This document shows, piece after piece, positions 7,114 through 55,844 of a stretch of DNA of 64,000 nt. Origin of the DNA: Actinomycetes bacterium. Its GTDB lineage: Bacteria > Actinomycetota > Actinomycetes > Mycobacteriales > Mycobacteriaceae. Each line of letters opens with the position of its first letter. Position 1 is the first letter of the stretch. Both the position numbers and the translations under genes were made by a program. The notes beneath the pieces are model-generated. The model was not told the origin of the DNA. It ran no database searches and worked only from the letters and a program-made list of their open reading frames with translations. The stretch spans positions 30,829 through 94,828 of the forward strand of contig JAEYMI010000022.1 of the NCBI GenBank assembly GCA_023461275.1. The letters run 5' to 3'.

Positions 7114-7123
7114 CCGAGACCTG

Positions 7124-38292: not shown

Positions 38293-38304
38293 GGTTAGGG
38301 TGCC
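38293..38304 (+). promoter_or_regulatory. Shared promoter-like motif GGTTAGGGTGCC (-10 TAGGGT)
   Basis: It lies about 40 nt upstream of ATG 38345. It differs at 2 of 12 positions from GGTTAGGCTACC at 39640. Confidence 0.35.
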
Positions 38305-38344
38305 CTTTGGTAGCCTCGTCGCAGATTCTGATGAGCCATCTCTC

Positions 38345-39622
38345 ATGACCGTCACCTCGTCGACGCCACACCAACGTTTGCTCCGGCTGACCCGGTCGGG
38401 TACCCGCGTGGCCGCGGTCGATCTGCAGCACAGTCATCGTCGTTCCGCCGCGATCTTCGGCCCCGTCGCTGTCCCTGATCGCGTCGAAGCCATCCGACGT
38501 CTTCGCGCGATGGTCGACGCGGGCCCGGCACTGCGACTGTGTCTGCAACCGTCGACGACGTCACGACGATGGCGTCGCGCCGACGCCGACATCGCCGACG
38601 CGGTCATCGAGGTCCCTGATTCGCACGACCCCCTGGTGTTACTCGACCGACTACACCGCCTCCCCGAGTCCGGACTGCGGGTGGCGCTCGCCGGCAACTA
38701 CGTCGCCATCGATTTCAGCCATGGCCTCGGGGACACCGCGTTCTGCCAGGCCGTCGCCGACGTCGTGGTCGGCGCGGTCACGCTCGACGACCCGCACTGG
38801 GACGCCTATCGCCATCGGGTGTCCCCGCTGGCGGCGGCCGGCCTGGCGACCTTCGGGTCAGATCCCCGACGACTCTGGCGGTTGGGCGGCCTGCACCGTC
38901 GTCGCCCGATCCCCGACCCGGGACCGGCCGGCGATCCACACCCGGTCTCGCGCACCGCGCCCACCGCCCGGATGGTTCGCCTTCCCGCCGACGACGTCGC
39001 CCGGCTGCGCACGCTACGCGACCGGCATCGTCCGGGGGTTTCGATGTTCGCCATCTACACGATCGCGCTCATCCGAGCACTGTCCGACGCCGGGATCTCG
39101 CTGACACCCGCGGTCACCATCCCCTTCGACGTCAGGCCCTACCTGCCCGCCGGCATCGACACCCTCGCGACGTTCTCGGCCGGGCTGGCCTTCCCGATCG
39201 GGCCCGACACCGCACCCCACAGCCTGCAGGCGCTGCTGACCGAGTCGGCCTCATGCGGACGTCCGGTGGCCAACATGCTGGTCAGTACCGCCAAGATCCG
39301 GCTCGCGTCCCGCGAACAACTCGCCGCCGACCACTGGGCACTCGTCGGCGACACCCCGCGAGCCGACCTGCTGCATTCGTTCGTCGGGCGGCTTCCGCAG
39401 ACCGACGCGATCAGGTTTCTCGATCCCGCCGCGGCGTCGAATTACACGGTGAGCGACCCGATTTCACCGCGGGGGATCACCGTGACGTCGGCGATGATCG
39501 GCGACGGCGCCCTGTGCATGTCGGCGGCATTTCACGACGAGCATCTGGATGCGGATCGGATCGACCGGGCGATCTCCGGCATTGCGGGTGCGATCGAGTC
39601 CACGATCAGGACGCCAGGTTAG
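38345..39622 (+). CDS. Condensation-domain-like (PapA/WS-type HxxxD) acyltransferase, putative
   Basis: About 425 aa. The motif FSHGLGD lies about 130 aa from the N-terminus, where C-domain HHxxxDG sits. No other family is recognised. The ORF-track frame starts at 38300. Confidence 0.4.
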   Translation: MTVTSSTPHQRLLRLTRSGTRVAAVDLQHSHRRSAAIFGPVAVPDRVEAIRRLRAMVDAGPALRLCLQPSTTSRRWRRADADIADAVIEVPDSHDPLVLLDRLHRLPESGLRVALAGNYVAIDFSHGLGDTAFCQAVADVVVGAVTLDDPHWDAYRHRVSPLAAAGLATFGSDPRRLWRLGGLHRRRPIPDPGPAGDPHPVSRTAPTARMVRLPADDVARLRTLRDRHRPGVSMFAIYTIALIRALSDAGISLTPAVTIPFDVRPYLPAGIDTLATFSAGLAFPIGPDTAPHSLQALLTESASCGRPVANMLVSTAKIRLASREQLAADHWALVGDTPRADLLHSFVGRLPQTDAIRFLDPAAASNYTVSDPISPRGITVTSAMIGDGALCMSAAFHDEHLDADRIDRAISGIAGAIESTIRTPG

Positions 39623-39639
39623 CCTTTCCTTAGGTGGTG

Positions 39640-39651
39640 GGTTAGGCTACC
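39640..39651 (+). promoter_or_regulatory. Shared promoter-like motif GGTTAGGCTACC (-10 TAGGCT)
   Basis: It lies 38 nt upstream of the GTG at 39689. The 10-mer TTAGGCTACC recurs upstream of the GT2 gene at 60825 (minus strand). Confidence 0.4.
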
Positions 39652-39688
39652 AAGGCTTACCTTACCTGCGATCGAAGGTTTTCAGTCC

Positions 39689-40666
39689 GTGTCACAGCCA
39701 TCTCCGGCACAGCCCGCGCCCGCGGTGGCACCGACCCTGTCGATCGTCATCTGCTGCTACACCGCCCGCCGACTCGACCAGTTGCACGCCGCCGTGCTCA
39801 GCGCGGTCGGCCAACTCGGAGCCGACGACGAGGTCATCGTGGTCGTCGACCACAACCCCGACCTGTTCGCGACGCTGCACGCCGACATCACGGTCCGCGA
39901 CGACCGGGTGCGCGTGCTGGCCAACACCGAGACCAACGGATTGTCGGGGGCGCGTAACACCGGAGTCGGCGCGGCCGTCGGTGGCGTGGTCGTCTTCCTC
40001 GACGACGACGCAGCCTTCGACGCGGGCGCACTCGACGCCGTGCGCAACCGGTTCGCCGGCACCGAGGTGATAGCGATCGGTGGCGCGGTGCTGGCCCGAT
40101 GGTCCGACGACGCCGAACCTGGTTGGTTCCCATCGGAATTCGGTTGGGTGGTGGGCTGCGACTACCGCGGTCTGCCCGCCGACGGCGCCACGATCCGCAA
40201 CCCGATCGGTGCCGCGATGGCGGTCCGACGCGAGGCACTGGTCGAGATCGGCGGCTTCTCGCGCCACCTCGGCCGACGCGGCACCTTCCCCGCCGGGTGC
40301 GAAGAGACTTTGATGGGAATCGTTCTGCACGAACGCTTTCCGAGCTCGGTCATCGTCCGCGACACGGGGCTGCGAGTACACCATCACGTGCCACGAGACC
40401 GCGCGACGTTCGACTACTTCCTTCGACGCTGCTACCAGGAGGGCCGGTCCAAGGCCATCCTGGCGAAGCTGACCTCGGCCGACAGCGCATTGTCCAGCGA
40501 ACGCGGATACGCGACACGCACGCTGCCGTCCGGGGTGTGGCTGCACCGGCGTCAACCCTTGCGCGTGCTGGCGCTGGTCGTCGGATTAGCGGTCACCACA
40601 GCAGGTTTCGTCACCGGAACGGTGAATCACGCTCTACATCGACGTACTGGGGAGGATGTTCGATGA
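39689..40666 (+). CDS. Glycosyltransferase family 2
   Basis: LSIVICCYT, VVVDHN, ARNTG and FLDDD (DxD) motifs, with a C-terminal TM helix. Confidence 0.85.
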   Translation: MSQPSPAQPAPAVAPTLSIVICCYTARRLDQLHAAVLSAVGQLGADDEVIVVVDHNPDLFATLHADITVRDDRVRVLANTETNGLSGARNTGVGAAVGGVVVFLDDDAAFDAGALDAVRNRFAGTEVIAIGGAVLARWSDDAEPGWFPSEFGWVVGCDYRGLPADGATIRNPIGAAMAVRREALVEIGGFSRHLGRRGTFPAGCEETLMGIVLHERFPSSVIVRDTGLRVHHHVPRDRATFDYFLRRCYQEGRSKAILAKLTSADSALSSERGYATRTLPSGVWLHRRQPLRVLALVVGLAVTTAGFVTGTVNHALHRRTGEDVR

Positions 40667-41394
40667 CGACCACAATCGGTTCCGTGCTGCGTGATCCACG
40701 CACCGCACGATTCGCCGGCCTGACGCTACTGCTCTATTTCGCCGCCGAATGGGTGGTCGCGGCGAGCTGGCGCGGACAGTACGGTTATCGTGCCATCCCG
40801 ACCGGCCCGCTGGGTATCGAGTTCTGTGGTCCGCGCGGCAACTGGCCGTGTAGCGCGCTGTACCCGGTGATGAACGTCGGGTTCGCCGTCACCGGCGTCG
40901 CGATCGCCGTGCTCGCGGTGACCTGGCTGGCGCGGCGCGCCATCCCCGTCGCCGGCGGAGTGGCACTGATCCTCAGCGGCGCCGGGTTGCTCATCGCCGG
41001 AATCATCACGCAGCGTGTCGATTACGACGCACACGTGGCGGCCATGTCGGTGTTCTACGTGTTCGGCGCGCTGGGCGTCCTGTTCATCGGGGCATCCGAT
41101 GCCACCGGGTTGTCGGTGCCGGCGCGTGCCGCGCTGATCATGGGTGGTGCACTGGCCACCGTCGCGTACTTCGCCTTCGTCAGCGGGATCACCGGCTGGC
41201 TCGGCGACGGCGGCACCGAACGCGCCATCATCTACCCGATCCTCATCAGCCTGCTCGTCGCCGGCGTGACCGGCGGCAATCACGGCGGTTACCGCGTGGC
41301 AGGCGCCGCGAGCGCGACGGACCAGCCGGCGATCGACGATGCATCCGGCGCGACGGACGAGCCCGAGCTCGCCGCCACCCGGAACCCCGCATGA
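40663..41394 (+). CDS. Polytopic membrane protein (DUF998-like)
   Basis: 243 aa with 6 hydrophobic helices. RBS GGGGAGGA. ATGA overlap with the upstream GT2 gene. Confidence 0.6.
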   Translation: MTTTIGSVLRDPRTARFAGLTLLLYFAAEWVVAASWRGQYGYRAIPTGPLGIEFCGPRGNWPCSALYPVMNVGFAVTGVAIAVLAVTWLARRAIPVAGGVALILSGAGLLIAGIITQRVDYDAHVAAMSVFYVFGALGVLFIGASDATGLSVPARAALIMGGALATVAYFAFVSGITGWLGDGGTERAIIYPILISLLVAGVTGGNHGGYRVAGAASATDQPAIDDASGATDEPELAATRNPA

Positions 41395-42236
41395 TCCGCG
41401 GTATCGGCGGACGCAACGGCTCGCGGCAGGTGAGCCGCTGTGTGTCCGCGGCATCGATGCTGATGGTGGCCGGTACCGTCGCGGCTTGTTCGTCGGCCTT
41501 CGGGGCCGCCTCCCACCAGGACAAGGCGCCGGGCATCATCTTCGCCGACGAATTCGACGGCGACGAGGGTCCCGTCGGCGCACTGTGGCAGACCGAAACC
41601 GGCGGCGGCGGTTGGGGAAACAACGAGGCACAGGTCTACACCGACCGGGCGGAGAACGTCCGCGTCGACGGCCGCGGTCACCTTGAGATCAACGCGCGCT
41701 TCGACGGCACCACCATCACCAGCGCCCGCCTGACCACCCGTCGGCACGCGAGTGTGACCTACGGGCGAGTCGAAGCCCGCATCTCCCTGCCCGCCGGCAA
41801 GGGTCTGCATCCGGCATTCTGGTTGCTCGGCGACAATCTCGACGCGGTGGGCTGGCCCGCCTCCGGTGAGATCGACGTCATCGAAACCCTCAACGACGCA
41901 GCACAATTCCACACCGGCGTACACGCGCCGCGGAAGTCGTCGGAGCGGGGACAGAACGTGATGGTCAGCGGCACCCCGCCGACACCCTTGGCCGGTGAGT
42001 TCCACAACTACTGGATGATCAAGTCCCCCGGCCGAATCGAAACCGGTATCGACAAGACGTCGCTGTTCGTGGTGACCCGCGCCGATCTCGCGGCCGATGC
42101 GCAATGGGTGTTCGACGCACCGTTCCATGTGCTCCTCAATCTCGCGGTGGGCGGCGATTGGCCAGGGCCACCGGATGATTCGACGCCCAACCCCGCCACG
42201 ATGCTCGTCGACTGGGTCCGGGTGACAGCGCTGTGA
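41391..42236 (+). CDS. Glycoside hydrolase family 16 lipoprotein (beta-glucanase-like)
   Basis: Lipobox VAACS. GH16 catalytic motif GEIDVIE and WPAFWLL-like HPAFWLLG. Confidence 0.8.
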   Translation: MIRGIGGRNGSRQVSRCVSAASMLMVAGTVAACSSAFGAASHQDKAPGIIFADEFDGDEGPVGALWQTETGGGGWGNNEAQVYTDRAENVRVDGRGHLEINARFDGTTITSARLTTRRHASVTYGRVEARISLPAGKGLHPAFWLLGDNLDAVGWPASGEIDVIETLNDAAQFHTGVHAPRKSSERGQNVMVSGTPPTPLAGEFHNYWMIKSPGRIETGIDKTSLFVVTRADLAADAQWVFDAPFHVLLNLAVGGDWPGPPDDSTPNPATMLVDWVRVTAL

Positions 42237-43513
42237 ACCACTCCATAGACAACAAACCCATGACCGAGATCACGTTGCAGTCCGCGATGGTGTCCGACGG
42301 CCGTCCCGAATGGGACGGCGCCACCTGGATCGGCATCCTCGACACCGCCCCGATCCAGGCCACTGGCGACGAGATCATCTGCGGCACACCTACGTCGGCG
42401 GACGGCTACCGGCACGCGCGGATACTGATCCGCGACGGTCACCGTCCACTGCACTTCGTCAGCACCCCGATCGAGGGCGGCCGGGTTCGCCTACCGCTCC
42501 CCGACACTCCCACTGACTCCGCCGAGACTGATACCGACGGTGTACCACTGCCGTCGATCTCGGTGGTGCTGTGTACGCGCGAGCGTCCCGACCAACTACG
42601 TGGCGCCCTCGAATCACTCTGTCGCATCGACTATCCCGACTACGAGGTGATCGTCGTCGACAATGCCCCGAGCACCGATGCCACCGAACGAGTCGTCGCC
42701 GAGTTCGACGATCCGCGCGTCCGGCGTGTACTCGCGCCGGTCGCAGGCCTCTCGTCGGCACGCAATGTCGGCGTGCGGGCGGCCGGCCACGATATCGTCG
42801 CCTTCACCGACGACGACGTTGTCGCCGACGTCGGCTGGTTACGCGGACTGGCACGGGGATTCGCCCGGTCAACCGATGTCGCGTGCGTCAGCGGGCTGGT
42901 GCCCAGCGGCGAATTGCGCACGCTGCCACAGGCTTACTTCGATTGGCGGGTGTCCTGGGCGGACAACACCGACGCGCGGGTCTACCGGTTGAGCGACCCA
43001 CCCCCGGACGTGCCGTTGTTCCCATTCCAGGTCGGCGTCTACGGGACCGGCGCCAATTTCGCGGTCCGACGCGACGCCGTCGCCGAGCTCGGCTTCTTCG
43101 ACGAACGTCTCGGCGCGGGAACCGCCACTCGCGGCGGCGAGGACCTCGACATTTTCTTCCGGATGCTGGTCGCCGGCCATGCGCTGGCCGTCGAACCGTC
43201 GTCGATCATCTGGCACCGACACCGAAGTGACAACGACGCCTTGATGTCTCAGGCCCGCGGCTACGGCGTCGGCCTGGGCGCATGGCTGTCCAAGGTCGCG
43301 ATCACGCGGCAGTATCGACGCCTGGCACTGTCGGTGCTTCGACGTCGGCTGAGCGCGGTGGCCCGCGCCGGGGCCGCCTACGGGGCGATCGCGGCACCCC
43401 CGCCGGAGTTCCTGTCCACGGTGCCCTCATCGGTCGGCCGGGTGGAGGTCTTCTCCGTCCTGGCCGGGCCTCGCGCGCTGTGGCGCGCACATCGGGAGCG
43501 GAAGCGATCATGA
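42233..43513 (+). CDS. Glycosyltransferase family 2
   Basis: ISVVLCTRERP, VIVVDNAPSTD, ARNVG and FTDDD motifs. GTGA overlap upstream and ATGA overlap downstream. Confidence 0.85.
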   Translation: MNHSIDNKPMTEITLQSAMVSDGRPEWDGATWIGILDTAPIQATGDEIICGTPTSADGYRHARILIRDGHRPLHFVSTPIEGGRVRLPLPDTPTDSAETDTDGVPLPSISVVLCTRERPDQLRGALESLCRIDYPDYEVIVVDNAPSTDATERVVAEFDDPRVRRVLAPVAGLSSARNVGVRAAGHDIVAFTDDDVVADVGWLRGLARGFARSTDVACVSGLVPSGELRTLPQAYFDWRVSWADNTDARVYRLSDPPPDVPLFPFQVGVYGTGANFAVRRDAVAELGFFDERLGAGTATRGGEDLDIFFRMLVAGHALAVEPSSIIWHRHRSDNDALMSQARGYGVGLGAWLSKVAITRQYRRLALSVLRRRLSAVARAGAAYGAIAAPPPEFLSTVPSSVGRVEVFSVLAGPRALWRAHRERKRS

Positions 43514-45678
43514 CGACCACATCGATGACCACCAGCCCATCCACCTCACCCGAAGAGCCCGACGCGACGGAACCGACGCCGAGCGTCGAGGTGGCCGACA
43601 CCTCCCGCCCGGCGCCGGCCGGTCTGGCCCTACCCGACGTCGCGCTCCTGGCCTCGATCGCCGGATTGGCCGGGCTGGCACCGGTTCCCGCGCCGGTCAA
43701 GGCCGTACTGGTCGCGATCTTCGTGTCGCTGGGGCCCGGCGCCGCCATCGCGACCTGGGTCCCGATCCCGCGGCATCTGCGGCTCGCCGCGATCCCGACG
43801 TTGAGCATGTCGGTGATGACCATCGTGGCAATCGGCGCGATGTGGTCCTACCGGTGGAACCCGACCGGCATCCTGGTGGTGTGCTGTGCGGCCACCGCCG
43901 GTGCCGCCGCGGTGAAATACGTTCGACGCGGCAGTTTTCCACCGTTCTCGAGCTGGATCGGCACCCTGGTGTCCCAGCTCCGCTTCGCCATCACCGCGCC
44001 CGGGGTCAACCCGGCAACGGCGCTGATCGCGGTCGGTCTGATCCTGTGGGCGATGGCGATGCCGTCGCTGCCCGGCACCGACGCCAGCTTCTACGGGCTG
44101 CTCGCATCGGGCAGCGGACGGCTCCTGGTCCCGGCGATCCTGCTCAACGCCGCCGGTTTCTGCTGGGCGGTGACCACCCGCCGGACCGGGGCGGCCGCGT
44201 TCGCCGTTGTCGGCGCCATCGTGATCGGCCGGATGACAACGTGGGTCGGCACCGAGATGCCGCTCTACGACTGGACCTACAAGCACATCGCGGTGGTCCG
44301 ATACATCCTCGAGCACAACCTGATCCAGCCCGACGGCACCGACATCTACGCGCAGTGGCCGGCGTTCTTCGTGACCTCGGCCTGGTATCTCGACGTGACC
44401 GGACTCGACCCCTACGCGCTTGCGCAGGCATTCGCCCCCATCGTGCACGTGCTGTTGGCCCTGATCGTGTACTCGGCCGCGCGGGTGGTCGGGCATTCCC
44501 ATCGAGTCGCGCTGGTGGCCACGTTCATTGCCGAGTCGGTGAATTGGGTTGGCCAGGATTACTTCTCACCCCAGGCATGGACGTTGGTGCTGGCTTTCGG
44601 CCTGATCGCAATACTCATCGCCTCTCGGGGTGCCCCGAGAATGGCTGTGCTGGCGATCATTCCGTTTGCTGCGATGGTGCCCACCCACCAGCTGACACCG
44701 TTCTGGGTACTCGGCGCTGCCACGTTGCTGGTGATCTTCCGACGAGTGCGGCCCTGGTGGGCCGTCGCGGCGATGATCGTGATCGCCGGCGCTTACCTCG
44801 CACTGAACTTCAGTGCTGTTGCGCCCTATGGCATCTTGTCCGGCGGCAACCCGGTGAACAACGCCACCAGCAACGTCACCATGGTGGGATTGCCGTCGCG
44901 GGAGTTCACCTCGCTGATCTGCCGCGGGCTGTCGGCCGGGGTGTTCGCCGCGGCCGCGTTGTCCGCGGTGTGGGCGTGGCGGACGCATCGACGTCACGTT
45001 CTGCTGCAGGCGATCCTGGCATTCTCGGCACTCGGGCTGCTGCTGGGCCAGAGTTATGGCGGTGAGGCGATCTTCCGGGTCTACCTCTACAGCCTGCTGG
45101 GCTGCGCCCTACTGATCGCCCCGTTCTTCGTCATGTTGCTCGACGGGTGGCGGCGCGGACCGTTGCGGTCGATCGGCGCGCTGGGCGCGGTCTCCGGCGC
45201 CCTGGCGGCGGCGCTGGCCGGGCTGTATTCCTTTGTCGCACTGTGGCCGATCGTCGTCGAGACGCGCGACCAGGTGGAGACGATGGACGCGATCACCGCG
45301 CAGGCACCAGCAGGGTCACGGTTCCTCATGATGTACGCCGGCGGCATGCCGACGCGTACAAACGCCAACTACGCCGCCCTCACGCTGCGCAACCCGTACT
45401 TCGACTATTCGCTGGCCTTCGATCTGAACGGCAACACCACCACCTTCCCCACTGCCGAACAGCTCGGGTACCTGGAGTGGAAGATCGACGAGCAACGAGA
45501 ACCCACGTTCATCGCCTTCAGCACGCAATCGAGCCGGACCATCGAGTACTACGGCGGCTTCAGTCCTGGTGCGGTGCAAACGTTTCAGCAGGTGCTTCGG
45601 GAGTCTCCGCAATGGCGCGTGATCCACGAGGGCAAGGACTCGGTGGTGTTCCGACACGACCCACCCGTGCGTAAATGA
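43510..45678 (+). CDS. Large polytopic membrane protein with C-terminal extracytoplasmic domain (candidate polymerase or GT-C-type enzyme)
   Basis: 722 aa with more than 12 hydrophobic helices, followed by a soluble tail of about 130 aa. No motif was recognised by eye. Confidence 0.6.
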   Translation: MTTTSMTTSPSTSPEEPDATEPTPSVEVADTSRPAPAGLALPDVALLASIAGLAGLAPVPAPVKAVLVAIFVSLGPGAAIATWVPIPRHLRLAAIPTLSMSVMTIVAIGAMWSYRWNPTGILVVCCAATAGAAAVKYVRRGSFPPFSSWIGTLVSQLRFAITAPGVNPATALIAVGLILWAMAMPSLPGTDASFYGLLASGSGRLLVPAILLNAAGFCWAVTTRRTGAAAFAVVGAIVIGRMTTWVGTEMPLYDWTYKHIAVVRYILEHNLIQPDGTDIYAQWPAFFVTSAWYLDVTGLDPYALAQAFAPIVHVLLALIVYSAARVVGHSHRVALVATFIAESVNWVGQDYFSPQAWTLVLAFGLIAILIASRGAPRMAVLAIIPFAAMVPTHQLTPFWVLGAATLLVIFRRVRPWWAVAAMIVIAGAYLALNFSAVAPYGILSGGNPVNNATSNVTMVGLPSREFTSLICRGLSAGVFAAAALSAVWAWRTHRRHVLLQAILAFSALGLLLGQSYGGEAIFRVYLYSLLGCALLIAPFFVMLLDGWRRGPLRSIGALGAVSGALAAALAGLYSFVALWPIVVETRDQVETMDAITAQAPAGSRFLMMYAGGMPTRTNANYAALTLRNPYFDYSLAFDLNGNTTTFPTAEQLGYLEWKIDEQREPTFIAFSTQSSRTIEYYGGFSPGAVQTFQQVLRESPQWRVIHEGKDSVVFRHDPPVRK

Positions 45679-45833
45679 AGCCGGCCAGCCGTGTGAAATG
45701 AACCACAAAGTAAACTGACAGTTAGGCAAGGATTACCTTAGAGACTAGCGTCGAACAGGAACGATGAGCGACGCAAAAGGACGCGGGGGCGTTGCATCGC
45801 CACTGCAGTCTTGACCCGATACGAGGGGGAAAC

Positions 45834-46817
45834 GTGACACAGGCTTCTGACGACCTGGAGTCCGCACGCGAGCTCGATGTGCCGCAGGTAGGCGACATGA
45901 GCGAGTTCGAAGAAGACTTCACCCACGTCGACGACCCGGAGCCGCATGACCCCGAGTCGGGCAGCGACGCCGCAACCGGTGAGACCACCGAACCGACTGT
46001 CTCCGTAGTGATCCCGACCCGCAACGAAGCACTCAACCTGCCGTATGTTGCCAGCCGGATGCCACCGGTCGACGAGATCATCGTCGTCGACGGCGCATCG
46101 TCGGACGACACCGTCGACGTCGCGCGCCGGCTGTGGCCGCACGCGGTGATCGTCCACCAGTCGCGCGACGGTAAGGGCAACGCACTCGCATGCGGGTTCG
46201 CCGCGGCCACCAGCGACATCATCGTTATGATCGATGCCGACGGCTCGACCGATCCGGCGGAGATCCCGGAGTTCGTCGCCGCGCTGATCAATGGTGCCGA
46301 CCTCGCCAAGGGCAGTCGGTTCTCCCACGGCGGCGGCAGCGACGACATCACCACCTTGCGCAGGTTCGGCAACAAGGGCCTGAACTGGCTGGTGAACCGG
46401 ATCTTCTCGACCGGATTCGCCGATCTCTGCTACGGCTACAACGCATTCTGGCGCCGGCACCTGTCGGTCATCGACCTGCCCGACATCCACGCGAGCGAAC
46501 CGCAGTGGGGTGACGGTTTCGAGGTGGAGACCATCATCAACGTCCGGATGGCTCGCGGCGACATGGCGATCCGTGAGGTCGGCAGCCACGAGAGCCCGCG
46601 CATCCACGGCCGCAGCAATCTCAACGCGGTCAGCGACGGCATCCGTGTGCTGAGAACCATTGACCGCGAACGACGATCGAGGCGTGCCACACTCCGCTCC
46701 TCCGAAGCCCGGTCCGCCGAAGCCCAGACCGGCGCCGAGGACCAGACCGGCGGCCAAGCCCAGACCACCAACACCGCCGATCTTCCACTCGGTGCCGGCA
46801 AGGTGCAACGGCCGTGA
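45834..46817 (+). CDS. GT2 polyprenyl-phosphate glycosyltransferase (Dpm1/GtrB-like)
   Basis: A GTG is preceded by GAGGGGGA. Contains VSVVIPTRNE, VVDGASSD, IDADGS and GSRF motifs. Confidence 0.8.
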   Translation: MTQASDDLESARELDVPQVGDMSEFEEDFTHVDDPEPHDPESGSDAATGETTEPTVSVVIPTRNEALNLPYVASRMPPVDEIIVVDGASSDDTVDVARRLWPHAVIVHQSRDGKGNALACGFAAATSDIIVMIDADGSTDPAEIPEFVAALINGADLAKGSRFSHGGGSDDITTLRRFGNKGLNWLVNRIFSTGFADLCYGYNAFWRRHLSVIDLPDIHASEPQWGDGFEVETIINVRMARGDMAIREVGSHESPRIHGRSNLNAVSDGIRVLRTIDRERRSRRATLRSSEARSAEAQTGAEDQTGGQAQTTNTADLPLGAGKVQRP

Positions 46818-48076: not shown

Positions 48077-48912
48077 TCGACAACAATGGCAATCGCCGAC
48101 ATATGATGTCCGGCAAGCATATTCGCATGACTCGTATCTTTGGTTCGTCGAGTCGTCGAGCCCTGGTGGTACCCATGGATCACTCGGTGACCATCGGCCC
48201 ACTCGGCGCGCGCGGCCACGCCGACCAGATGGCAGCGGTCCTCGCCCGAGCCGGCGCCGACGCGCTGATCGTCCACAAGGGTCGCGCCCGCACCATCTCA
48301 CCGGGACGCTTCGGATCGATGGGTCTGATCGTTCACCTGTCCGCGGGTACCAATCTCGCGGTCGACCAGACCCGCAAGGTGCTCGTCGGATCGGTGGAGG
48401 AATGCCTGAGCCTGGGTGCCGACGCGGTCAGTGTCCACGTCAACGTCGGTGCGCCAACTGAATCCGAGCAGCTCACCGATCTCGGTGTGGTCGCCGCGGA
48501 GTGCGACAAACTCGGTGTCCCGTTGCTGGCCATGATGTACGCCCGTGGCGGCGTCGCCGACGCCGGCAACACCTCGGTGGCGACGCTGGCACATCTCGCG
48601 GCGATCGCCACCGACCTCGGGGCCGACATCGTCAAGCTCGATTACGCCGGCGCGCCGGAACGGATGAACGAGGTGGTCGACACCAGCCCGCTGCCGATCC
48701 TGGTGGCCGGCGGGCCGACGACTGCTTCCGACGAGGCCGCCATCGCGTTCGGGTTGCAGGTGGCCGAATCACGGGTCGCCGGACTCAGTTTCGGTCGGTT
48801 GATCTTCGGTGCGGAACACCCGCAGCGTGTCGCGTCGACGCTTGCCGACCGCCTGCATCGTGAAGCCGCCCCCGCACACCCGAAGGCGACGGCCACCCTC
48901 GAGCTCGCCTGA
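48073..48912 (+). CDS. DhnA-type class I aldolase (GriI / ADH-synthase AroA'-like)
   Basis: GKHIRMTRIF, VVPMDH, ADIVKLDY (Schiff-base Lys context) and VAGGP motifs. Confidence 0.7.
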   Translation: MIDNNGNRRHMMSGKHIRMTRIFGSSSRRALVVPMDHSVTIGPLGARGHADQMAAVLARAGADALIVHKGRARTISPGRFGSMGLIVHLSAGTNLAVDQTRKVLVGSVEECLSLGADAVSVHVNVGAPTESEQLTDLGVVAAECDKLGVPLLAMMYARGGVADAGNTSVATLAHLAAIATDLGADIVKLDYAGAPERMNEVVDTSPLPILVAGGPTTASDEAAIAFGLQVAESRVAGLSFGRLIFGAEHPQRVASTLADRLHREAAPAHPKATATLELA

Positions 48913-48991
48913 GCCCGCGCCTGTGCACCTCCGACATCAGCACCCGGACCATCAGACCCAGCCCATCAGTTCCCAGCAAGAAGGCACCATC

Positions 48992-50200
48992 ATGAGCGCA
49001 TCCACCGATATCGTCACCGACGACATCACCCCCCTCAAACCCGTTCCGTCGGTCACCGCCGCCGGCTCGACCAGCATCTCCGGGGCCAGCGAGACCGACG
49101 GTCCGCGTGAACATTTCGCGTGGATCGATGTCCGCAACACGAAGGGCTCATTGCGCGACGCGCTGATCCAGGCCGCCATCCACCATCGCATCGACGGCGT
49201 CGTCTCCGACGATCCCGCCGTCCTGATCGATCTACCACCGACGATTCGTCGGGTGCTGACCGGCACTTCGTCGGCCGAGTCCGGGTCCATCGACCTCACC
49301 CTCGTCGAACATCCCGGCCACGACGGACCGATCGAGGCGCCGTCGTCGGATGCCGATCTCGGTGTGCACGTGGTGGTCTCCGACGCCGAGACGCTGCGGC
49401 ATGCCTGCGAGATCGTGCGTCGGGTGCCGTGGACTGTCCTGACCTTCACCGACCCCACCAAGATCCCGCTGGAGATCGTCATCGCCGCCGCGGAGAACTC
49501 CGGCGGCCGCAGCATCACCGTCGTCAACGACATCGAGGATGCCGAGATCGTCAAGCTGGTTCTCGAACACGGTTCCGACGGACTGCTTCTGGCGCCTCGC
49601 AACGCCGATGACGTGGCCACTCTCGCCGAGGTCATCCGGCCGTCAGCGGAGACGATCGAGCTGACCGAACTCACGGTCACCAAGGTCGAGCACATCGGCA
49701 TGGGTGAGCGGGCGTGCATCGACACCTGCTCACTGCTGGAGAAGGACGAAGGCTGCCTGATCGGCTCCTTCTCCACCGGAATGTTTCTGTCCTGCAGCGA
49801 AACACATCCGCTCCCCTACATGCCGACCCGCCCGTTCCGATGGAACGCCGGTGCGGTGCACTCCTACGTCCTCACCCCGGGAAACCGGACCCGCTACGTC
49901 AGCGAACTGCACGCCGGGCAGCCGATCCTCGCCGTCCGCAGCGACGGCTCGGTGCGCGAGGTTCGGATCGGACGCGTGAAAATCGAACGGCGGCCGATCA
50001 TCTCGGTCACCGCGACCGCACCCGACGGCCGCGTCGTCAACGTGATCGCCCAGGACGACTGGCATGTCCGGCTGCTCGGCCCGGGTGGATCGGTCAACAA
50101 CGTCACCGACCTCAAGCCCGGCGACCTGCTCCTCGGCTACGCGCCCAGCGAATCCCGCCACGTCGGCCTGCCGATCACCGAGTTCTGCGACGAGCGATAG
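48992..50200 (+). CDS. 3-dehydroquinate synthase II family protein (GriH / 3-amino-4-hydroxybenzoate synthase-like)
   Basis: 402 aa, recognised as archaeal-type DHQS-II/GriH. It is paired with the DhnA aldolase, as in griI-griH. Confidence 0.65.
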   Translation: MSASTDIVTDDITPLKPVPSVTAAGSTSISGASETDGPREHFAWIDVRNTKGSLRDALIQAAIHHRIDGVVSDDPAVLIDLPPTIRRVLTGTSSAESGSIDLTLVEHPGHDGPIEAPSSDADLGVHVVVSDAETLRHACEIVRRVPWTVLTFTDPTKIPLEIVIAAAENSGGRSITVVNDIEDAEIVKLVLEHGSDGLLLAPRNADDVATLAEVIRPSAETIELTELTVTKVEHIGMGERACIDTCSLLEKDEGCLIGSFSTGMFLSCSETHPLPYMPTRPFRWNAGAVHSYVLTPGNRTRYVSELHAGQPILAVRSDGSVREVRIGRVKIERRPIISVTATAPDGRVVNVIAQDDWHVRLLGPGGSVNNVTDLKPGDLLLGYAPSESRHVGLPITEFCDER

Positions 50201-50207
50201 GCCGGCG

Positions 50208-51422
50208 GTGACCATCTCGACAGCCGCCGGACCACCGGTCACCGGTTCAGACGACAACGGCACGGCGCCAACCTCTCCCGACGTCCTCTGGTACATCAAC
50301 CCGACCGATGGCGAGGCACCCTGGGAGCCGACCCAACGGTACGAGCCGACGTTCGAACGTCTGCGGCATCAGGCCCGCACACTCGACCGACTCGGCTATT
50401 GGGGCGCGTTGACGACTGCGCGCGAACCCATTTCGCTCGTCGCCGACACCGAGAACCTACGCTTCCTGATCCCGGTGTACCCGGGCGTCAAGCCACCGGT
50501 TCTGATGGCCGAAGAGGCACAGGTCTTCGACCAGTACTCCGGCGGCCGACTGCTGATCAACCAGGTCAACGGCGCCGACCCCGTGCTGCATCGTTACGGC
50601 AGATTCCATTCCAAAGCCGAACGCTATCGACTCTCCGCGGAGTACTGGCGACAGGTCAAGCGCCTCTATCTCGACGACGCCGAGGCGTACGACGGCGAAT
50701 TCTTCACCTACGGACCGCAATACAAGCCGTCGATTCCGGGGCCGCGGCAACCCAACGGGCTACCGATCTGGGGAACCGGAGCGTCGCCGGAGGGCATCGA
50801 CCACGCCGTCGACGTCCTCGACGTGTATCTCTCGTTCATGTCCGAGCCGTCGTCGCTGGCCGGTCTGTTCAACCGGGTGCGTGCCGCCGCCGCGGCCAAG
50901 GGACGCACCCTGCGCTTCGGTGTACTGGCCAGCGTCATCGTCCGCGACACCGACGAGGCCGCCTGGGAACGTTTCGAATGGCAACTCGCGCAGACCCGGC
51001 CGGAAACCGTACTGGCCACCGCCGACCGTAACCTGCGCAGTTTCGGCTACCCCGGACTCGACGAGATCACCAGTGACGACCCGCAGGTACAAGCCCGGAT
51101 CGACGCCCTGCGCGCCGGCCGGATTCCCGCACGGGCCGAGTTGCAGTTCGCGCCGAATATGGCTGCCGGACTGACCACCTGGACCGCCGCCGAACCGCCC
51201 TTCGACATCGCGGGCAAGGGCACCGGCACCTACTTCGTGGGCAGCGCCGAGAACGTCGCGGCCACCATGCGTTCGGTCGCCGAACAGGCCGGTATCGACG
51301 TCTGGATCCTGTCGGCGTGGCCGCTGGCACGCGAAGCCGAGATCGCCGCCGAACTCCTGCTTCCGCAGCTGCGCGAACAACATTCGACGTCCGGCGCGGG
51401 ACACCGCGAGACCCGACGGTGA
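50208..51422 (+). CDS. LLM-class (luciferase-like, SsuD-type) flavin-dependent monooxygenase
   Basis: VLWYINPTDGE... N-terminus, with TIM-barrel LLM pattern LLINQVNG and GSAENVAATM. The GTG start lies 7 nt after the upstream stop. Confidence 0.65.
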   Translation: MTISTAAGPPVTGSDDNGTAPTSPDVLWYINPTDGEAPWEPTQRYEPTFERLRHQARTLDRLGYWGALTTAREPISLVADTENLRFLIPVYPGVKPPVLMAEEAQVFDQYSGGRLLINQVNGADPVLHRYGRFHSKAERYRLSAEYWRQVKRLYLDDAEAYDGEFFTYGPQYKPSIPGPRQPNGLPIWGTGASPEGIDHAVDVLDVYLSFMSEPSSLAGLFNRVRAAAAAKGRTLRFGVLASVIVRDTDEAAWERFEWQLAQTRPETVLATADRNLRSFGYPGLDEITSDDPQVQARIDALRAGRIPARAELQFAPNMAAGLTTWTAAEPPFDIAGKGTGTYFVGSAENVAATMRSVAEQAGIDVWILSAWPLAREAEIAAELLLPQLREQHSTSGAGHRETRR

Positions 51423-52792
51423 GTTCACGACCGGTCGGCTCTCCGATTCGCCGTGTCCAATCGATCGTCGGTGCCGCACGTCGGAGCCGTCAGGCACCGT
51501 CGAGCGGCCTCAGTGTCGACATCGCGGCGATCATGACGTCGAGCATCATGACCGGCGCACTCGGTTTCGTGTTCTGGACCATCGCCGCCCGCGGCTACAC
51601 GCCGGCGGAGGTGGGTCGGGCGTCGGCGATCATCTCGTCGGCGACGTTGCTCAGTTCGCTGTCGAACCTGAGCCTCGGCGACCTCTACGAGCGATTCCTG
51701 CCGGTGTCCGGGCGCGACGCCGCCCGTCACATCGCGTCGGGCCGGTTCGCGATCATGGCGCTCGCCGCGGTGATGGGTGTCGGGTTCGTCCTGCTCGGTC
51801 CGCGGGAATCGTTGTTCGACAGCATGATCGAACAGATTCTCTATCCCATCGCTGTCGTGGTGCTCGGTGTCTTCGCCATCCAGGACAAGACGCTCATCGG
51901 GCTCGGCCGTGCCCGGACGGTGGCGAGGAAGAACATCACGCAGTCGGTGGCGAAGCTGGCGCTGGTGGCGGCGTTCATTCCGCTGGCCACCGGCTCGGCG
52001 ATCGTGTGGGCATGGGTGGTTCCGGCGGCGTTGATCGCGATCTGGATCGGCTTCACCTCGGTACGCACGAGTAGCCGCGCGATGGTCGGTGAGCCCAATC
52101 TGCCGCCACGAAGCGAGATCTGGCACTTCTTCGCGGGATCGTTGGCGATGAACGTGGTGGGTGTCTTTGTGCCGCTGGTGGTTCCGCTGGTGATCGTCGC
52201 CACCTTGGGCACCGAGATGAACGCCTACTTCTCGATCTGCTGGCTCATCATCTCCACGGCCATCATCCTGCTGTACTCGACTGCCGCCCCGTTCATCTCG
52301 GCCGCCGCGGAACCGGGAGCCGATCTGCGTCATGCCACAATCCGCTTCATCGCGCTGTGTGGCGGGGCGGGCATTCTCAGCTGCGTGGGCCTGATCATCA
52401 TCGCGCCGTGGGTGTTGGCGATCATGGGGCCGTCCTACGCCGAGAACGGCACCGTGCTGGTGCGGCTGATGGCGTTGACGTTGCCGACGGTCTCATTTGT
52501 CGCGATCTACACCGCGCTGGCCAAAGTCGAACGGCGACTGCGGTTCGCGGTCGGCGTTCAGGTGGTGTTCGGGATCTTCGTCATCGCCGGCATCGCGCCG
52601 GCCGCCGAACGATGGGGCATCCAAGGGGTCGGTTACCTCTATCTCGCCGCCGATCTGCTCGTGGTGGCCATCCTGCTCGTCCCGGGGATCGCGTTGATCC
52701 GCCGTGCGCTGCGCCATCCGGTCGCCCCGACCGTCGCAGACACCCCGAACGTCGTGCGTAGCTCATCTGCTTCGTCGGGAACATGGTCATGA
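51419..52792 (+). CDS. MOP-superfamily (Wzx-like) oligosaccharide/lipid flippase
   Basis: About 457 aa with about 12-14 TM helices. GTGA overlap with the upstream gene. Confidence 0.5.
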   Translation: MSSRPVGSPIRRVQSIVGAARRSRQAPSSGLSVDIAAIMTSSIMTGALGFVFWTIAARGYTPAEVGRASAIISSATLLSSLSNLSLGDLYERFLPVSGRDAARHIASGRFAIMALAAVMGVGFVLLGPRESLFDSMIEQILYPIAVVVLGVFAIQDKTLIGLGRARTVARKNITQSVAKLALVAAFIPLATGSAIVWAWVVPAALIAIWIGFTSVRTSSRAMVGEPNLPPRSEIWHFFAGSLAMNVVGVFVPLVVPLVIVATLGTEMNAYFSICWLIISTAIILLYSTAAPFISAAAEPGADLRHATIRFIALCGGAGILSCVGLIIIAPWVLAIMGPSYAENGTVLVRLMALTLPTVSFVAIYTALAKVERRLRFAVGVQVVFGIFVIAGIAPAAERWGIQGVGYLYLAADLLVVAILLVPGIALIRRALRHPVAPTVADTPNVVRSSSASSGTWS

Positions 52793-54225
52793 CCGTGTCA
52801 CCGGATCGGGTCTCGGCTACCAGCGTCGCGGCCGGATTTGCGCATGCCGCACAACGATTCGACGACGCCGCCGCACTTCGCATGGGGCACGAGGTGATCA
52901 CCTACCGCGAGTTCGGCACACGGTCGAGAAACATCGCTGCCGCCCTCGAGCGCCTCTCCCCCGAAGCCGACGGTCCGGTCGTCGTGCAACTGCCGATGTC
53001 TGCGGATTCGGCTGCCATCGTGCTCGGTGTCTTCACCGCCCGTCGGCCCCTCGTCGCCCTCGATCCGGAACTCCCGCGCGAACGAATCGCCGGAATCCTC
53101 GGCGAACTCGGTCGTCACGGACGGTCACCGGCATTGTTCGTCGCGGCCGCGAGCCACCTCGACGATGCTCGGGTCATTGCCGAACCGCATGACCTCGCTG
53201 TCGTCGACGCTGCCACGCTTGACGTCCGAGGCGACGCTGATATGGCTGTTCCGCAGCGCTATTCGGCAGACACCGTGACCAGCATCCAGTTCACCTCCGG
53301 TTCCACCGGGTCACCGAAGGGCGTGCTGCACCCCGACGCGATGTGGCTGGCCGACGCGGTCTTCATGCGCGACTGCTTCGACATCACCCCCGGCCAACCA
53401 GTCGCCCTGTGTTTGCCCTTCAGCTTTGGTGCCGGCCTGAACGTCTTGATCAACTCGTTGCTCAACGGCGCCGAGATCACCGTTGTCGATCCGCGTACCG
53501 CGGGTACCACCGCCGTCCTGGAGGCCATCGCGAGCGCGGACTCGACCACCGCGTTCATGACGCCGAATCTCTTGCGGGCGTTGCTCGGTGCGCGCGGCGA
53601 TGCCGACCGTGCGCACCGCGCGTGGGGCTCGGTGAAGCGGATCATCACCACCGGTGAACCGTTGCGCGGCGACCTCGCGGCCGACGCGGTGCGACGTGCC
53701 CGGCAGGCCGTCGTCACCAATTGGGTCGGATCGTCGGAGACCTCGGCGCTGGCCTATTTCGATGTGCGACAGGGTGATCAGATCGAACCCGGCAACCTCC
53801 CGGCGGGCAGGCTGGCGCCCGGCAAGTCGGTGATCTTCGACGACGACGGCCGCATCGTCGTCGTATCCCCTTATCTCGCACAGGGGTATCTCGACGCGAC
53901 GATGAACCCCGGACGGTTCGGTCACGACGAGTCGGGCACACCCTACTTCCAGATGGGTGATCGCGGCGAGTGGCAGAACGGCATCCTGTATCTGCAGGGG
54001 CGAACCGACAATGCCGTCAAGGTGCGCGGCTATCTCGTGGAGCCTGCCGAGATCGAGAAGGCATTGTTGGCCGACGGTGATCTGCGCGAGGTGACCGCGG
54101 TACCGATCACCAACTCCGCCGGCGCGTGGAGTTGGCCGCCTACGTGGTACCCAGCGGCTCGACCCGCACGCCACCGACCGCCGTGTTACGCGTCCGGCTT
54201 CGGGATCGTTTGCCGGACTGGATGA
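52783..54225 (+). CDS. NRPS-like adenylation domain, frame 1 of a frameshifted A-T-TE gene
   Basis: A3 motif TSGSTGSPKG, A5-like NWVGSSE and A8 GRTDNAVKVRGYLVEPAEIE. After ...VTAVPITNSAG the frame becomes junk (AWSWPPTWYP...). Confidence 0.75.
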   Translation: MVMTVSPDRVSATSVAAGFAHAAQRFDDAAALRMGHEVITYREFGTRSRNIAAALERLSPEADGPVVVQLPMSADSAAIVLGVFTARRPLVALDPELPRERIAGILGELGRHGRSPALFVAAASHLDDARVIAEPHDLAVVDAATLDVRGDADMAVPQRYSADTVTSIQFTSGSTGSPKGVLHPDAMWLADAVFMRDCFDITPGQPVALCLPFSFGAGLNVLINSLLNGAEITVVDPRTAGTTAVLEAIASADSTTAFMTPNLLRALLGARGDADRAHRAWGSVKRIITTGEPLRGDLAADAVRRARQAVVTNWVGSSETSALAYFDVRQGDQIEPGNLPAGRLAPGKSVIFDDDGRIVVVSPYLAQGYLDATMNPGRFGHDESGTPYFQMGDRGEWQNGILYLQGRTDNAVKVRGYLVEPAEIEKALLADGDLREVTAVPITNSAGAWSWPPTWYPAARPARHRPPCYASGFGIVCRTG

Positions 54226-55319
54226 TTCCAGCACACTTCGTCGAACTCACGGAGTTGCCGCGCACTGGGCGCGGCAAGGTCGACCGTGCCGCACTTCCGG
54301 TCCCCAGCCGTGTCATCGAGCCGCCGCGCGGCGAGACCGAAGCCGCGATTGCAGCGGTGTGGGCCGAGGTCCTGCAACTCGATGAGGTCGGACGCGACGA
54401 GAACATCTACGCCTTGGGCGCGGATTCGTTGACAGTGCAGGACATTCTGGTCGCCATGACCCGACGCCTCGGCATCACACTGACCCAAGCACAGGCCGCG
54501 GCGTGTCCGACGGTCGCGCTGATGGCTGAGATCGCCGACGGACCGACAGGTTCTGGTCCTTTCGGCACAGTGTCCGGACGGTTGGCCGGCCTGGCCCCGA
54601 CAACCGTGCCGTTGCACTCCGGGGCGGGGCGGCCGGTGTTCTGCTTTACCGGCGCCGGAGCTTCCGCCCTTGCGTTCGTACCATTCGCCGAAAAGCTGGC
54701 CCGCCGCGACGGGGTCGGATCGGTGTACGCCTTCGCCCCGAACGGTCTCGAGAACCGTGGGCTACCGGATTGGACGGTTGCCGCAGCGGCCCGACGCCAC
54801 CTGCGCGACCTGCGCCGCATCCAACCCACCGGACCCTATGTGCTGGTGGGACATTCGCTCGGCGGATTCATCGCTCTCGAGGTGGCGCGGCGGTTGCGCG
54901 CCGCAGGTGAACGCGTCGATCAGGTGGTTGTTCTCGATACCTTTCTGCCGCAACGTTTTGCGCGTTCGGCAACCACGGTCGACCCGGATCTGTCGGTGAC
55001 CGCACCGGAAGCGCCCTTACCGCGCGCCGAGTTGTGGCGACGCCGGGCCCGAATCCCGTTGGCGGGCCTCGTGCCGATGTCGCCGGTCGATTCGGCGCGC
55101 GCAATGGAAGAGGTCGGCCGTCGGGTGGGAATCTTCCACCGCCCCAAGGTCTACGACGGCGACGTACTCCTGGTACTGGGTACCGAGAACCACGACGATC
55201 CACGCATCTGGCGCGACCGCATCGTCACCGGCGAGCTGACCGTGCTACACCTCGACTGCGACCACATGTCGATCATCCGCGACCCCCACATCGGCGCCGT
55301 CGTCGACGCGATGGAATAG
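54126..55319 (+). CDS. NRPS-like A-domain C-terminal subdomain plus thiolation plus thioesterase, frame 2 of the same gene
   Basis: VELAAYVVP, A10 motif PRTGRGKVDR, PCP LGADSLTV, TE motif GHSLGG and LDCDHMS. Confidence 0.75.
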   Translation: MELAAYVVPSGSTRTPPTAVLRVRLRDRLPDWMIPAHFVELTELPRTGRGKVDRAALPVPSRVIEPPRGETEAAIAAVWAEVLQLDEVGRDENIYALGADSLTVQDILVAMTRRLGITLTQAQAAACPTVALMAEIADGPTGSGPFGTVSGRLAGLAPTTVPLHSGAGRPVFCFTGAGASALAFVPFAEKLARRDGVGSVYAFAPNGLENRGLPDWTVAAAARRHLRDLRRIQPTGPYVLVGHSLGGFIALEVARRLRAAGERVDQVVVLDTFLPQRFARSATTVDPDLSVTAPEAPLPRAELWRRRARIPLAGLVPMSPVDSARAMEEVGRRVGIFHRPKVYDGDVLLVLGTENHDDPRIWRDRIVTGELTVLHLDCDHMSIIRDPHIGAVVDAME

Positions 55320-55331
55320 CACCCGCCGCAA

Positions 55332-55372
55332 AGGAATGCATTTGTCGCGCGACACGCACCAAATGCATTCCT
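55332..55372. terminator. 13-bp perfect inverted repeat after the cluster (terminator or operator)
   Basis: AGGAATGCATTTG-N15-CAAATGCATTCCT begins 13 nt after the stop at 55319. Confidence 0.45.
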
Positions 55373-55841: not shown

Positions 55842-55844
55842 CCC

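Follow-up and report, generated by a model that had tools for sequence, protein, structure and literature searches.

The locus described here raises the question of why genes for glycan assembly, genes for the aromatic acid 3-amino-4-hydroxybenzoate (3,4-AHBA) and a gene for a nonribosomal peptide synthetase (NRPS)-like loading enzyme are interleaved in a single run, and what they might make together. It occupies positions 38345-55319 of the window, a 64,000-nucleotide (nt) stretch of an Actinomycetes bacterium of the family Mycobacteriaceae (GenBank assembly GCA_023461275.1, contig JAEYMI010000022.1, positions 30,829 to 94,828 of the forward strand). An earlier note on this DNA had proposed that the aromatic and carrier genes function jointly with the glycan genes. 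The link was borne out by its recurrence in diverged genera, by fusion of the loading enzyme to a flippase and by covariation in the adenylation domain pocket, whereas the product is something that we infer. Modular loci of this kind are distributed across Gordonia, Rhodococcus, Williamsia and Mycolicibacterium, and the locus in the window, one of the variants, has three modules, 1) a glycan cassette comprising a condensation-like (C-like) acyltransferase, three family 2 glycosyltransferases (GT2s), a DUF998 protein, a GH16 lipoprotein, a GT-C protein and a Wzx-like flippase, 2) an adenylation-thiolation-thioesterase (A-T-TE) enzyme, referred to below as the loader, and 3) an aromatic cassette, PobA-GriI-GriH-LLM, where LLM is a luciferase-like monooxygenase. 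As to the product, we give an approximately even chance to a lipid-linked glycan that receives a 3,4-AHBA derivative by aryl acylation before it is flipped, yielding an extracytoplasmic envelope glycan of the Mycobacteriales.

Gene families were assigned by Pfam and NCBIfam profile searches; proteins without a match were assigned from an AlphaFold2 (AF2) model compared by Foldseek, or from the Pfam matches of their relatives. The interval was filled by the following co-directional open reading frames (ORFs), taken from the ORF list.

38345-39622, plus strand: g01, stand-alone condensation-fold (HxxxD) acyltransferase, cytoplasmic, which opens the glycan cassette (assigned by fold)
39689-40666, plus strand: g02, GT2a glycosyltransferase (PF00535, E 5e-20)
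40663-41394, plus strand: g03, small polytopic membrane protein, DUF998-like (PF06197, E 7e-6, under the gathering score)
41391-42236, plus strand: g04, GH16 lipoprotein, predicted to hydrolyze or transglycosylate glycans outside the cytoplasm (PF00722, 50 bits; cut-off 22)
42233-43513, plus strand: g05, GT2b glycosyltransferase with an N-terminal extension of about 100 residues (PF00535, E 8e-25)
43510-45678, plus strand: g06, predicted GT-C fold glycosyltransferase of 722 residues, polytopic, with a C-terminal soluble domain (assigned by fold)
45834-46817, plus strand: g07, GT2c, polyprenyl-phosphate hexose synthase type (Dpm1/AglJ/ArnC-like; PF00535, E 6e-24)
46814-48076, plus strand: g08, PobA-like FAD monooxygenase (NF006091, 513 bits against 351)
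48073-48912, plus strand: g09, GriI-like class I aldolase, first step to 3,4-AHBA (PF01791, E 1.5e-35; NF005556)
48992-50200, plus strand: g10, GriH-like cyclase/aromatase of the dehydroquinate synthase II (DHQS-II) family, 3,4-AHBA synthase type (PF01959, E 9e-105; NF002625)
50208-51422, plus strand: g11, luciferase-like (SsuD-like) flavin monooxygenase, the LLM (PF00296, E 2e-34)
51419-52792, plus strand: g12, putative MOP-family (Wzx-like) flippase (PF01943 in relatives; transmembrane scan)
52783-55319, plus strand: g13/14, NRPS-like A-T-TE loader, split into two frames (AMP-binding, AMP-binding_C, PP-binding and Thioesterase by Pfam)

The earlier note had described thirteen co-directional genes. 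The run was as described, but the loader was not one intact gene, as a 1-nt deletion divides it. The gene-family calls all held, whether by Pfam, NCBIfam or predicted fold. Every stop/start overlap that had been claimed was also found on reading the sequence: ATGA at 40663, 41391 and 43510, and GTGA at 42233, 46814, 48073 and 51419. The ATG of the loader at 52783 overlaps the end of the Wzx-like gene by 10 nt; were translation to start at the next ATG, at 52789, the overlap would be a canonical ATGA instead. The remaining junctions are gaps of 66 (g01/g02), 155, 79 (GriI/GriH) and 7 nt.

The arrangement ties the modules together. The aromatic cassette, nested with GT2c before it and Wzx after it, has overlapping stop and start codons on either side, and Wzx in turn overlaps the loader. 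Moreover, Wzx and the loader form one reading frame in five Mycolicibacterium-type genomes (L011, L023, L087, L088 and L092; related loci are designated by L numbers), three of which have fused gene calls of 1283-1297 residues (L087, 13590-17483; L088, 13682-17533; L092, 5148-9020). The fusions rest on the five loci read directly, and a word-index search with Wzx returned no fusion protein. They are Rosetta-stone fusions of a flippase with an acyl loader, and we know of no flippase-NRPS fusion that has been described. Both the nesting and the fusions argue against the explanation that two unrelated systems, a polysaccharide locus and an independent 3,4-AHBA pathway with its own NRPS-like enzyme, came together by chance at a variable site.

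The distribution of the modules bears on the same explanation. GriH was scanned in one genome per species, the locus contexts were read and the ORFs of the related loci were chosen by conservation. The GriH proteins of a Mycobacteriales clade stood at 66-78% identity and all others at 56% at most. In the 58 loci outside the clade, from Streptomyces, Lentzea and other genera, the GriI-GriH pair alone was shared and none (0/58) had glycan or A-T-TE genes. Among 26 loci, namely the 24 clade loci from the scan and the close relatives L084 and L085, the loader was present in 20, Wzx in 19 and a Dpm1-like GT2 in 18. The closest relatives of the window are all Gordonia, and its three-module version is shared gene for gene with L084, L085 and L091. 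The full combination was found in the window, in these three loci, in L003, L011, L023 and L087, and in about a dozen Rhodococcus, Gordonia and Williamsia loci, a GT-C homolog being retained even where its identity is as low as 23-27%. The combination thus recurs in diverged genera, although the modules also occur apart.

Two kinds of incomplete locus were informative. Rhodococcus jostii has two paralogous cassettes with GT2c, GT2a, GT2b, Wzx, GH16 and GT-C genes, one of which also has the C-like and DUF998 genes, and neither has aromatic or A-T-TE genes. As for the other genes of these cassettes (L082 and L083), one includes a 597-residue double alpha/beta-hydrolase and adjoins a 1330-residue GGDEF-EAL protein, and the second includes genes for aminodeoxysugars and for a C-methyltransferase, which suggests a family of variably decorated glycans. 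Three other genomes, those of G. westfalica, M. thermoresistibile and M. diernhoferi, have the cassette accompanied by Wzx and the loader in the absence of PobA, GriI, GriH and LLM, and the G. westfalica locus occupies the same site between pstS and mshD as the locus in the window.

The loader itself carries the most specific evidence. The AMP-binding, PP-binding and Thioesterase domains expected of an A-T-TE enzyme are all encoded, together with the motifs LGADS (carrier), GHSLGG (thioesterase) and GKVDR, but not in an intact frame; the first half (52783-54225) has the A domain core and the second (54126-55319) the A domain C-terminal subdomain, T and TE. In the A domain, Lys517 is retained and Asp235 is replaced by glycine (FSFD of LgrA aligns with FSFG), so that the substrate is not expected to be an alpha-amino acid, and that class of substrate was ruled out on this ground. 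Position 235 is glycine or alanine in all 25 of the A-T-TE orthologs compared. Within the window-type group, it is glycine in 8/8 loci that have GriI/H and alanine in 3/3 loci that lack them, a switch seen in both Gordonia and Mycolicibacterium; the odds of such an association are 1 in 165 when phylogeny is ignored. Rhodococcus loci that have PobA and LLM also differ at further positions of the pocket from Gordonia loci that lack the two. Four results consequently link the loader with both the aromatic acid and the glycan machinery: the Wzx fusion, the two-sided coupling, the lost Asp235 and the Gly/Ala switch.

A chance meeting of two unrelated systems is nevertheless a reading with something in its favor. 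The gene sets of the pstS-mshD interval differ among Gordonia, each module is found without the others, and the region has been entered by other DNA, an Esp-like block in the lineage of the window and an insertion sequence (IS) element in a relative. Set against the two-sided overlaps, the fusion in five genomes, the persistence of the combination across genera in which the GT-C protein is about 25% identical, and a loader that, in loci lacking GriI/H, still accompanies the cassette but has a changed pocket residue, we consider it improbable.

The acid that the aromatic cassette might supply was approached through its four enzymes. GriI and GriH form 3,4-AHBA from aspartate semialdehyde and dihydroxyacetone phosphate (DHAP) (PMC10179220, PMC8264950). 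In the window, an aldolase of the ADH-synthase/GriI subfamily adjoins a DHQS-II protein across the 79-nt gap. The earlier note had left the GriI/GriH-like assignments to profile searches, and both proteins passed the cut-offs (g09, NF005556, 266 bits against 241; g10, NF002625, 483 bits against 375). The exception-level models for the bagremycin and ferroverdin enzymes were missed, BagB/FevI with 222 bits against 500 and BagC/FevH with 418 bits against 750, and orthology to those enzymes is thus not indicated. g10 is 52-56% identical to GriH of the GriI-GriH pairs in Streptomyces and related genera. Since the pair forms a separate clade, its product is assigned from the family and not from orthology. 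The start of g09 at 48073 is uncertain because the GriI-family alignment opens at residue 11, near ATGs at 48103 and 48106. In Mycolicibacterium chitae (L087), a truncated GriH-like ORF (284 residues) is followed, within 5110-7205, by a gene encoding a DHQS C-terminal piece joined to a GT2 domain, and a full GriH copy is present at 12431-13603, so that the aromatic cassette seems to have been rearranged or duplicated.

The PobA-like protein, g08, passed the subfamily model NF006091 and fell under the equivalog cut-off (TIGR02360, 466 bits against 539). When it was aligned to 1d7l, the substrate residues of p-hydroxybenzoate hydroxylase, Y201, S212, R214, Y222, P293 and Y385, were all conserved. 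Conservation of the residues that hold the carboxylate and the 4-hydroxyl fits a putative substrate of the 4-hydroxybenzoate type, such as 3,4-AHBA, and g08 is a PobA paralog, probably an ortho-hydroxylase of a ring of this type. The LLM, g11, scored 165-168 bits with alkanesulfonate monooxygenase models, under their cut-offs; LLMs of its type were found only in loci with GriI/H and go with the aromatic cassette. In eight related loci, an arylamine N-acetyltransferase gene (PF00797, E 1e-36) lies within the aromatic cassette on the opposite strand, between PobA and GriI in L010, L012, L013, L016, L017, L022 and L050, and at 5-331 in L003. The gene is absent from the window, and its presence in the relatives fits an arylamine intermediate or product.

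These enzymes could also serve a diffusible product. It could be supposed that the GT2s glycosylate an AHBA-derived aglycone and that the MOP protein exports a pigment, an antibiotic or a catechol or aminophenol chelator, with no decorated polymer. GriI/GriH cassettes are otherwise known solely from small-molecule pathways (PMC10179220, PMC8264950), and an ortho-hydroxylated aminophenol would be a good chelator. The aromatic cassette stands essentially alone in L022, L009, L014 and L017, and an aryl-carrier-like protein and an MFS transporter are encoded just downstream in some Rhodococcus loci. The polyprenyl-phosphate-sugar-type GT2, the GT-C protein and the GH16 lipoprotein, however, indicate extracytoplasmic assembly of a lipid-linked glycan, the same cassette occurs without aromatic genes, and a fusion of loader and flippase suits a lipid-linked substrate. 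A diffusible glycosylated aryl metabolite is accordingly rated unlikely.

That machinery points instead to the lipid-linked glycan, and two of its members had to be identified by fold. For g06, Pfam and PDB sequence searches gave no match. Its AF2 model had a pLDDT of 87.6, and the top 17 Foldseek matches in the PDB were all GT-C proteins, each with a probability of 1.00, among them AftA, STT3, ALG12, ArnT, PglB and AglB (E 9e-6 to 1e-3); D278, E342, D350 and E519 are invariant acidic residues among its homologs. On this model, g06 is a GT-C glycosyltransferase, and because all of the top matches belong to that class, it is not the polymerase that the earlier note had supposed. A Wzy-type polymerase was likewise ruled out by the GT-C fold matches. 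The expected donor is a sugar linked to polyprenyl phosphate, used outside the membrane. In G. insulae (L090), a 552-residue polytopic membrane protein with no family match is encoded on the opposite strand at 12170-13828, between the GT-C and GT2c genes.

The fold of g06 could also be that of an oligosaccharyltransferase, so that, as in the AglJ/AglG/AglR/AglB pathway of archaea, the targets of glycosylation would be proteins, either secreted or of the envelope, and the aryl acid would reside on a protein-linked glycan. AglJ and AglG are the best named relatives of GT2c and GT2a, and the GT-C protein has STT3, PglB and AglB among its best matches by structure. AftA, ALG12 and ArnT match it equally well, however, no WWDxG motif was seen when the sequence of its C-terminal soluble domain was read, and the NCBIfam scores of both GT2s are far under the cut-offs: GT2a scored 168 bits against 440 with NF041394, the AglG-type model for extension of a lipid-linked sugar, and GT2c matched AglJ best (118 bits), then dolichyl-phosphate hexose transferase, ArnC and PpgS, every score being under its cut-off. 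Protein glycosylation is thus rated improbable.

Among the other proteins of the glycan cassette, GT2b has orthologs 47-52% identical in the R. jostii cassettes, and GT2c has an alternative start at 45792. The DUF998-like protein has about six hydrophobic segments and is kept in the cassettes of L082, L085 and L091. The GH16 protein belongs to its family by score, with a lipobox (TVAAC) and the catalytic-type motif EIDVIE (ExDxxE). The flippase was a mixed case, since g12 itself had no Pfam match at E values up to 1, PF01943 included. Homologs 88-63% identical bear PF01943 and are named O-antigen or lipopolysaccharide export proteins, 11 of 19 aligned relatives match this model (best E 3e-11), and about 12 hydrophobic or transmembrane segments were predicted in g12. 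Its start at 51419 is supported because the residues upstream of the next methionine are conserved in orthologs.

g01 had been listed in the earlier note as a condensation-like acyltransferase. The condensation fold was substantiated: Pfam (the Condensation model included) and NCBIfam searches gave no match, but the AF2 model (pLDDT 89.4) had the two-lobed, chloramphenicol acetyltransferase (CAT)-like fold of condensation domains, with Foldseek matches to NRPS C domains, PapA5, TRI3 and HCT (E 1e-11 to 6e-15), and His126 of its SHGLGD motif is invariant in 22 homologs. A role in aryl transfer did not follow. Since a homolog, 31% identical, is present in an R. jostii cassette that has neither GriI/H nor the A-T-TE enzyme, g01 is part of the glycan cassette and not evidently an aryl transferase. 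The idea that it is a dedicated partner of the T domain was rejected because it occurs in a cassette without a carrier protein. Searches of the PDB with the C-like, GT-C and Wzx-like proteins, as single sequences and as profiles, found nothing significant.

The locus is flanked on the left by pstBACS and on the right by the following features, then by mshD and glnR.

55527-59640, plus strand: inserted low-GC block with an EspC-like protein, a 787-residue EspA-like protein and two ORFs without family match (PF10824, PF23275)
59764-60825, minus strand: GT2d, a further GT2 glycosyltransferase (PF00535, E 1e-26)
60913-61878, minus strand: membrane-anchored protein with the Exo_endo_phos (EEP) phosphodiesterase fold (PF03372, E 1e-25)

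The earlier note had regarded the whole block between pstS and mshD as an accessory insertion. This is not supported, since variants occupy the same site in several Gordonia and the composition is like that of the backbone; the G+C content of the cluster is 65-68% and the flanks are alike. Recent horizontal acquisition of the whole block was rejected on the basis of this similarity. The sole deviant stretch is at 56-60 kb (57-60% G+C as compared to about 66%), and only this EspC/EspA-like segment looks recently inserted. It encodes the EspC-like protein (104 residues, PF10824) and the 787-residue protein, which has an EspA-like TPR_23 domain. The block is absent from L085 and L003, where GT2d directly follows the loader gene, which identifies it as DNA inserted within the locus. 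Its genes, associated with ESX secretion, seem to have entered recently and lie outside the system. GT2d and the EEP protein, the latter with 2-3 N-terminal hydrophobic segments, are probably part of the locus because both also trail the cluster in Rhodococcus. GT2d homologs 41-47% identical follow the cluster in 11 loci of Rhodococcus, Gordonia and Williamsia, and the L085 copy is 71% identical, and the EEP gene is beside or near that of the loader or Wzx in L003, L011, L087, L088, L090 and Rhodococcus loci.

Between pstS and the first gene of the cluster there is a 640-nt gap (37706-38344) that contains an 81-residue ORF (37887-38132), also called as a gene in L001 and without a convincing family match, and a weak promoter-like site (37975-38002). 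An Rfam scan of 33-64 kb detected no RNA element.

A scheme for the aryl-acylated, lipid-linked glycan can be drawn from these assignments. GT-C enzymes use polyprenyl-phosphate-linked donors outside the membrane, and MOP proteins flip lipid-linked glycans. GT2c would synthesize a polyprenyl-phosphate hexose, and GT2a, GT2b and GT2d would lengthen a lipid-linked sugar at the cytoplasmic face. GriI and GriH would use aspartate semialdehyde and DHAP to build 3,4-AHBA, the PobA-like enzyme would hydroxylate the free position ortho to the phenol, the presumed site, to give an acid of the 3-amino-4,5-dihydroxybenzoate type, and the luciferase-like oxygenase may carry out one further oxidation of the aromatic acid. 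The loader would adenylate this non-alpha-amino aromatic acid and keep it as a thioester, and its TE, beside the flippase at the membrane's inner face, may transfer the aryl group onto the lipid-linked sugar, with a hydroxyl or an amine of that sugar as the acceptor, so that, in this proposal, the decorated unit is exported. The Wzx-like protein would flip the lipid-linked glycan, the GT-C enzyme would install the decorated unit on an acceptor outside the membrane, and the GH16 lipoprotein would trim or transglycosylate the product. The condensation-fold protein g01 might O-acylate the glycan, adding another acyl group.

Several observations weigh against this scheme, 1) the acceptor and the linkage are guesses, 2) the fold match of g06, with TM-scores of about 0.4-0.5, would be compatible with a polysaccharide, a lipid or a protein as acceptor, 3) GT2c and GT2a score under the curated cut-offs of their named relatives, 4) the covariation in the pocket concerns 11 loci and at least two independent changes, and the pocket positions other than 235 and 517 were mapped by reference to the GrsA motifs and are approximate, 5) the A-T-TE enzyme is missing from G. 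insulae, which otherwise has Wzx, the glycan cassette and PobA-GriI-GriH-LLM, 6) in the four genomes in which the aromatic genes stand alone, the acid can have a role apart from the locus, 7) promoter and terminator scans gave results at the level of shuffled sequence and are therefore uninformative on transcription units, and 8) the loader is frameshifted in this genome.

The frameshift was located by alignment with L084, a metagenome contig 97.6% identical to the window. Where L084 has GGCGCCGTGG, the window has GGCG-CGTGG, a missing C that breaks the frame at about 54125 and leaves all of the domains present. The A-T-TE orthologs are single ORFs of 843-893 residues, with intact proteins of 843 residues in L084, 863 in L085 and 893 in L091. 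The same deletion is present in the Logan assembly of SRR13400335, which perhaps derives from the same reads. Either the gene has truly been inactivated by mutation or the sequence is in error; if the deletion is real, the decoration would be off in this genome. In L084, an IS element (4574-5968; DDE transposase, 464 residues) interrupts the 66-nt spacer that separates the C-like gene from GT2a, corresponding to position 39630, approximately, in the window. The different lesions in the window and in L084 may reflect relaxed selection or on/off variation.

A broader interpretation, offered tentatively and with less than even confidence, is that many Mycobacteriales (Gordonia, Rhodococcus, Williamsia and Mycolicibacterium) make a hitherto unrecognized envelope glycan, the lipid-linked precursor of which is aryl-acylated at the membrane by a loader docked or fused to Wzx, and that the cassettes that supply the acid are interchangeable, the acid here being a redox-active aminophenol derived from 3,4-AHBA. 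If this were true, it would represent a new route for decorating polysaccharides, like D-alanylation but with building blocks of specialized metabolism, and would show that an NRPS-like loader can be joined physically and directly to a glycan flippase. It would also add an aromatic, redox-active, metal-binding substituent to the envelope chemistry of mycolate bacteria and provide the first role for 3,4-AHBA outside secondary metabolites of the Streptomyces type. The carriers include sludge-foaming Gordonia, the insect symbiont Rhodococcus rhodnii and environmental mycobacteria, and a surface decoration could influence their hydrophobicity, phage or host recognition and metal handling.

The earlier note had known of no described system with this architecture, and the comparison with the literature on GriH and 3,4-AHBA in Rhodococcus, Gordonia and Mycobacterium, and on related glycan and flippase loci, found no description of it either. 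There are, nonetheless, known systems that resemble its parts, although none of them shares the architecture. ArnC, ArnEF and ArnT add aminoarabinose to lipid A, and mycobacterial PpgS, Rv3789 and Rv3779 add galactosamine to arabinogalactan. As in this locus, one set of genes encodes a GT2 synthase for a polyprenyl-phosphate sugar, a flippase and a GT-C transferase; the NCBIfam matches of GT2c include ArnC and PpgS, and the GT-C protein matches ArnT in structure. The locus differs in having three more GT2s, a GH16 lipoprotein, a condensation-fold acyltransferase, a flippase of the MOP type rather than the GtrA/ArnEF type, and an aromatic-acid supply with an NRPS-like loader, and all of its sequence scores are under the family cut-offs.

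The mycobacterial phenolic glycolipids and p-hydroxybenzoic acid derivatives, which involve Rv2949c, FadD22 and glycosyltransferases, likewise have a dedicated benzoic acid unit, adenylation-carrier activation and a glycosylated envelope or surface product in Mycobacteriales. They depend on polyketide synthase (PKS) extension and on soluble nucleotide-sugar glycosyltransferases that act on the phenol, whereas this locus has no PKS, has machinery for lipid-linked glycans (GT2, Wzx and GT-C) and would use an amino-substituted acid. The TE of Pks13 transfers a mycolic precursor to trehalose and is a sugar O-acyltransferase TE from the same order; the T-TE region of the loader matches the Pks13 model (E 1e-17). 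The Pks13 TE, however, resides on a PKS with lipid substrates, and acyl transfer by the TE of the loader is a prediction.

The Streptomyces 3,4-AHBA pathways, for grixazone (GriI/GriH), cremeomycin, the ahbamycins and platensimycin, also have GriI-GriH beside an adenylating enzyme and a flavin hydroxylase (PMC10179220, PMC8264950). They differ in that this locus is devoid of phenoxazinone synthase, diazo, terpene and PKS genes and that its GriI/GriH pair belongs to a distinct Mycobacteriales clade. A parallel to the proposed chemistry is found in the Dlt system of D-alanylation (DltA, DltC, DltB and DltD), in which an adenylation enzyme also loads a small acid on a carrier to esterify an envelope glycopolymer, and the DltA models match the A domain of the loader (E 1e-32). 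In this locus, there is no MBOAT protein (DltB) or DltD. Instead, the A domain is continuous with its carrier and with a TE, the loader is itself fused to the Wzx-like flippase in Mycolicibacterium, and the replacement of Asp235 indicates a substrate other than an alpha-amino acid.

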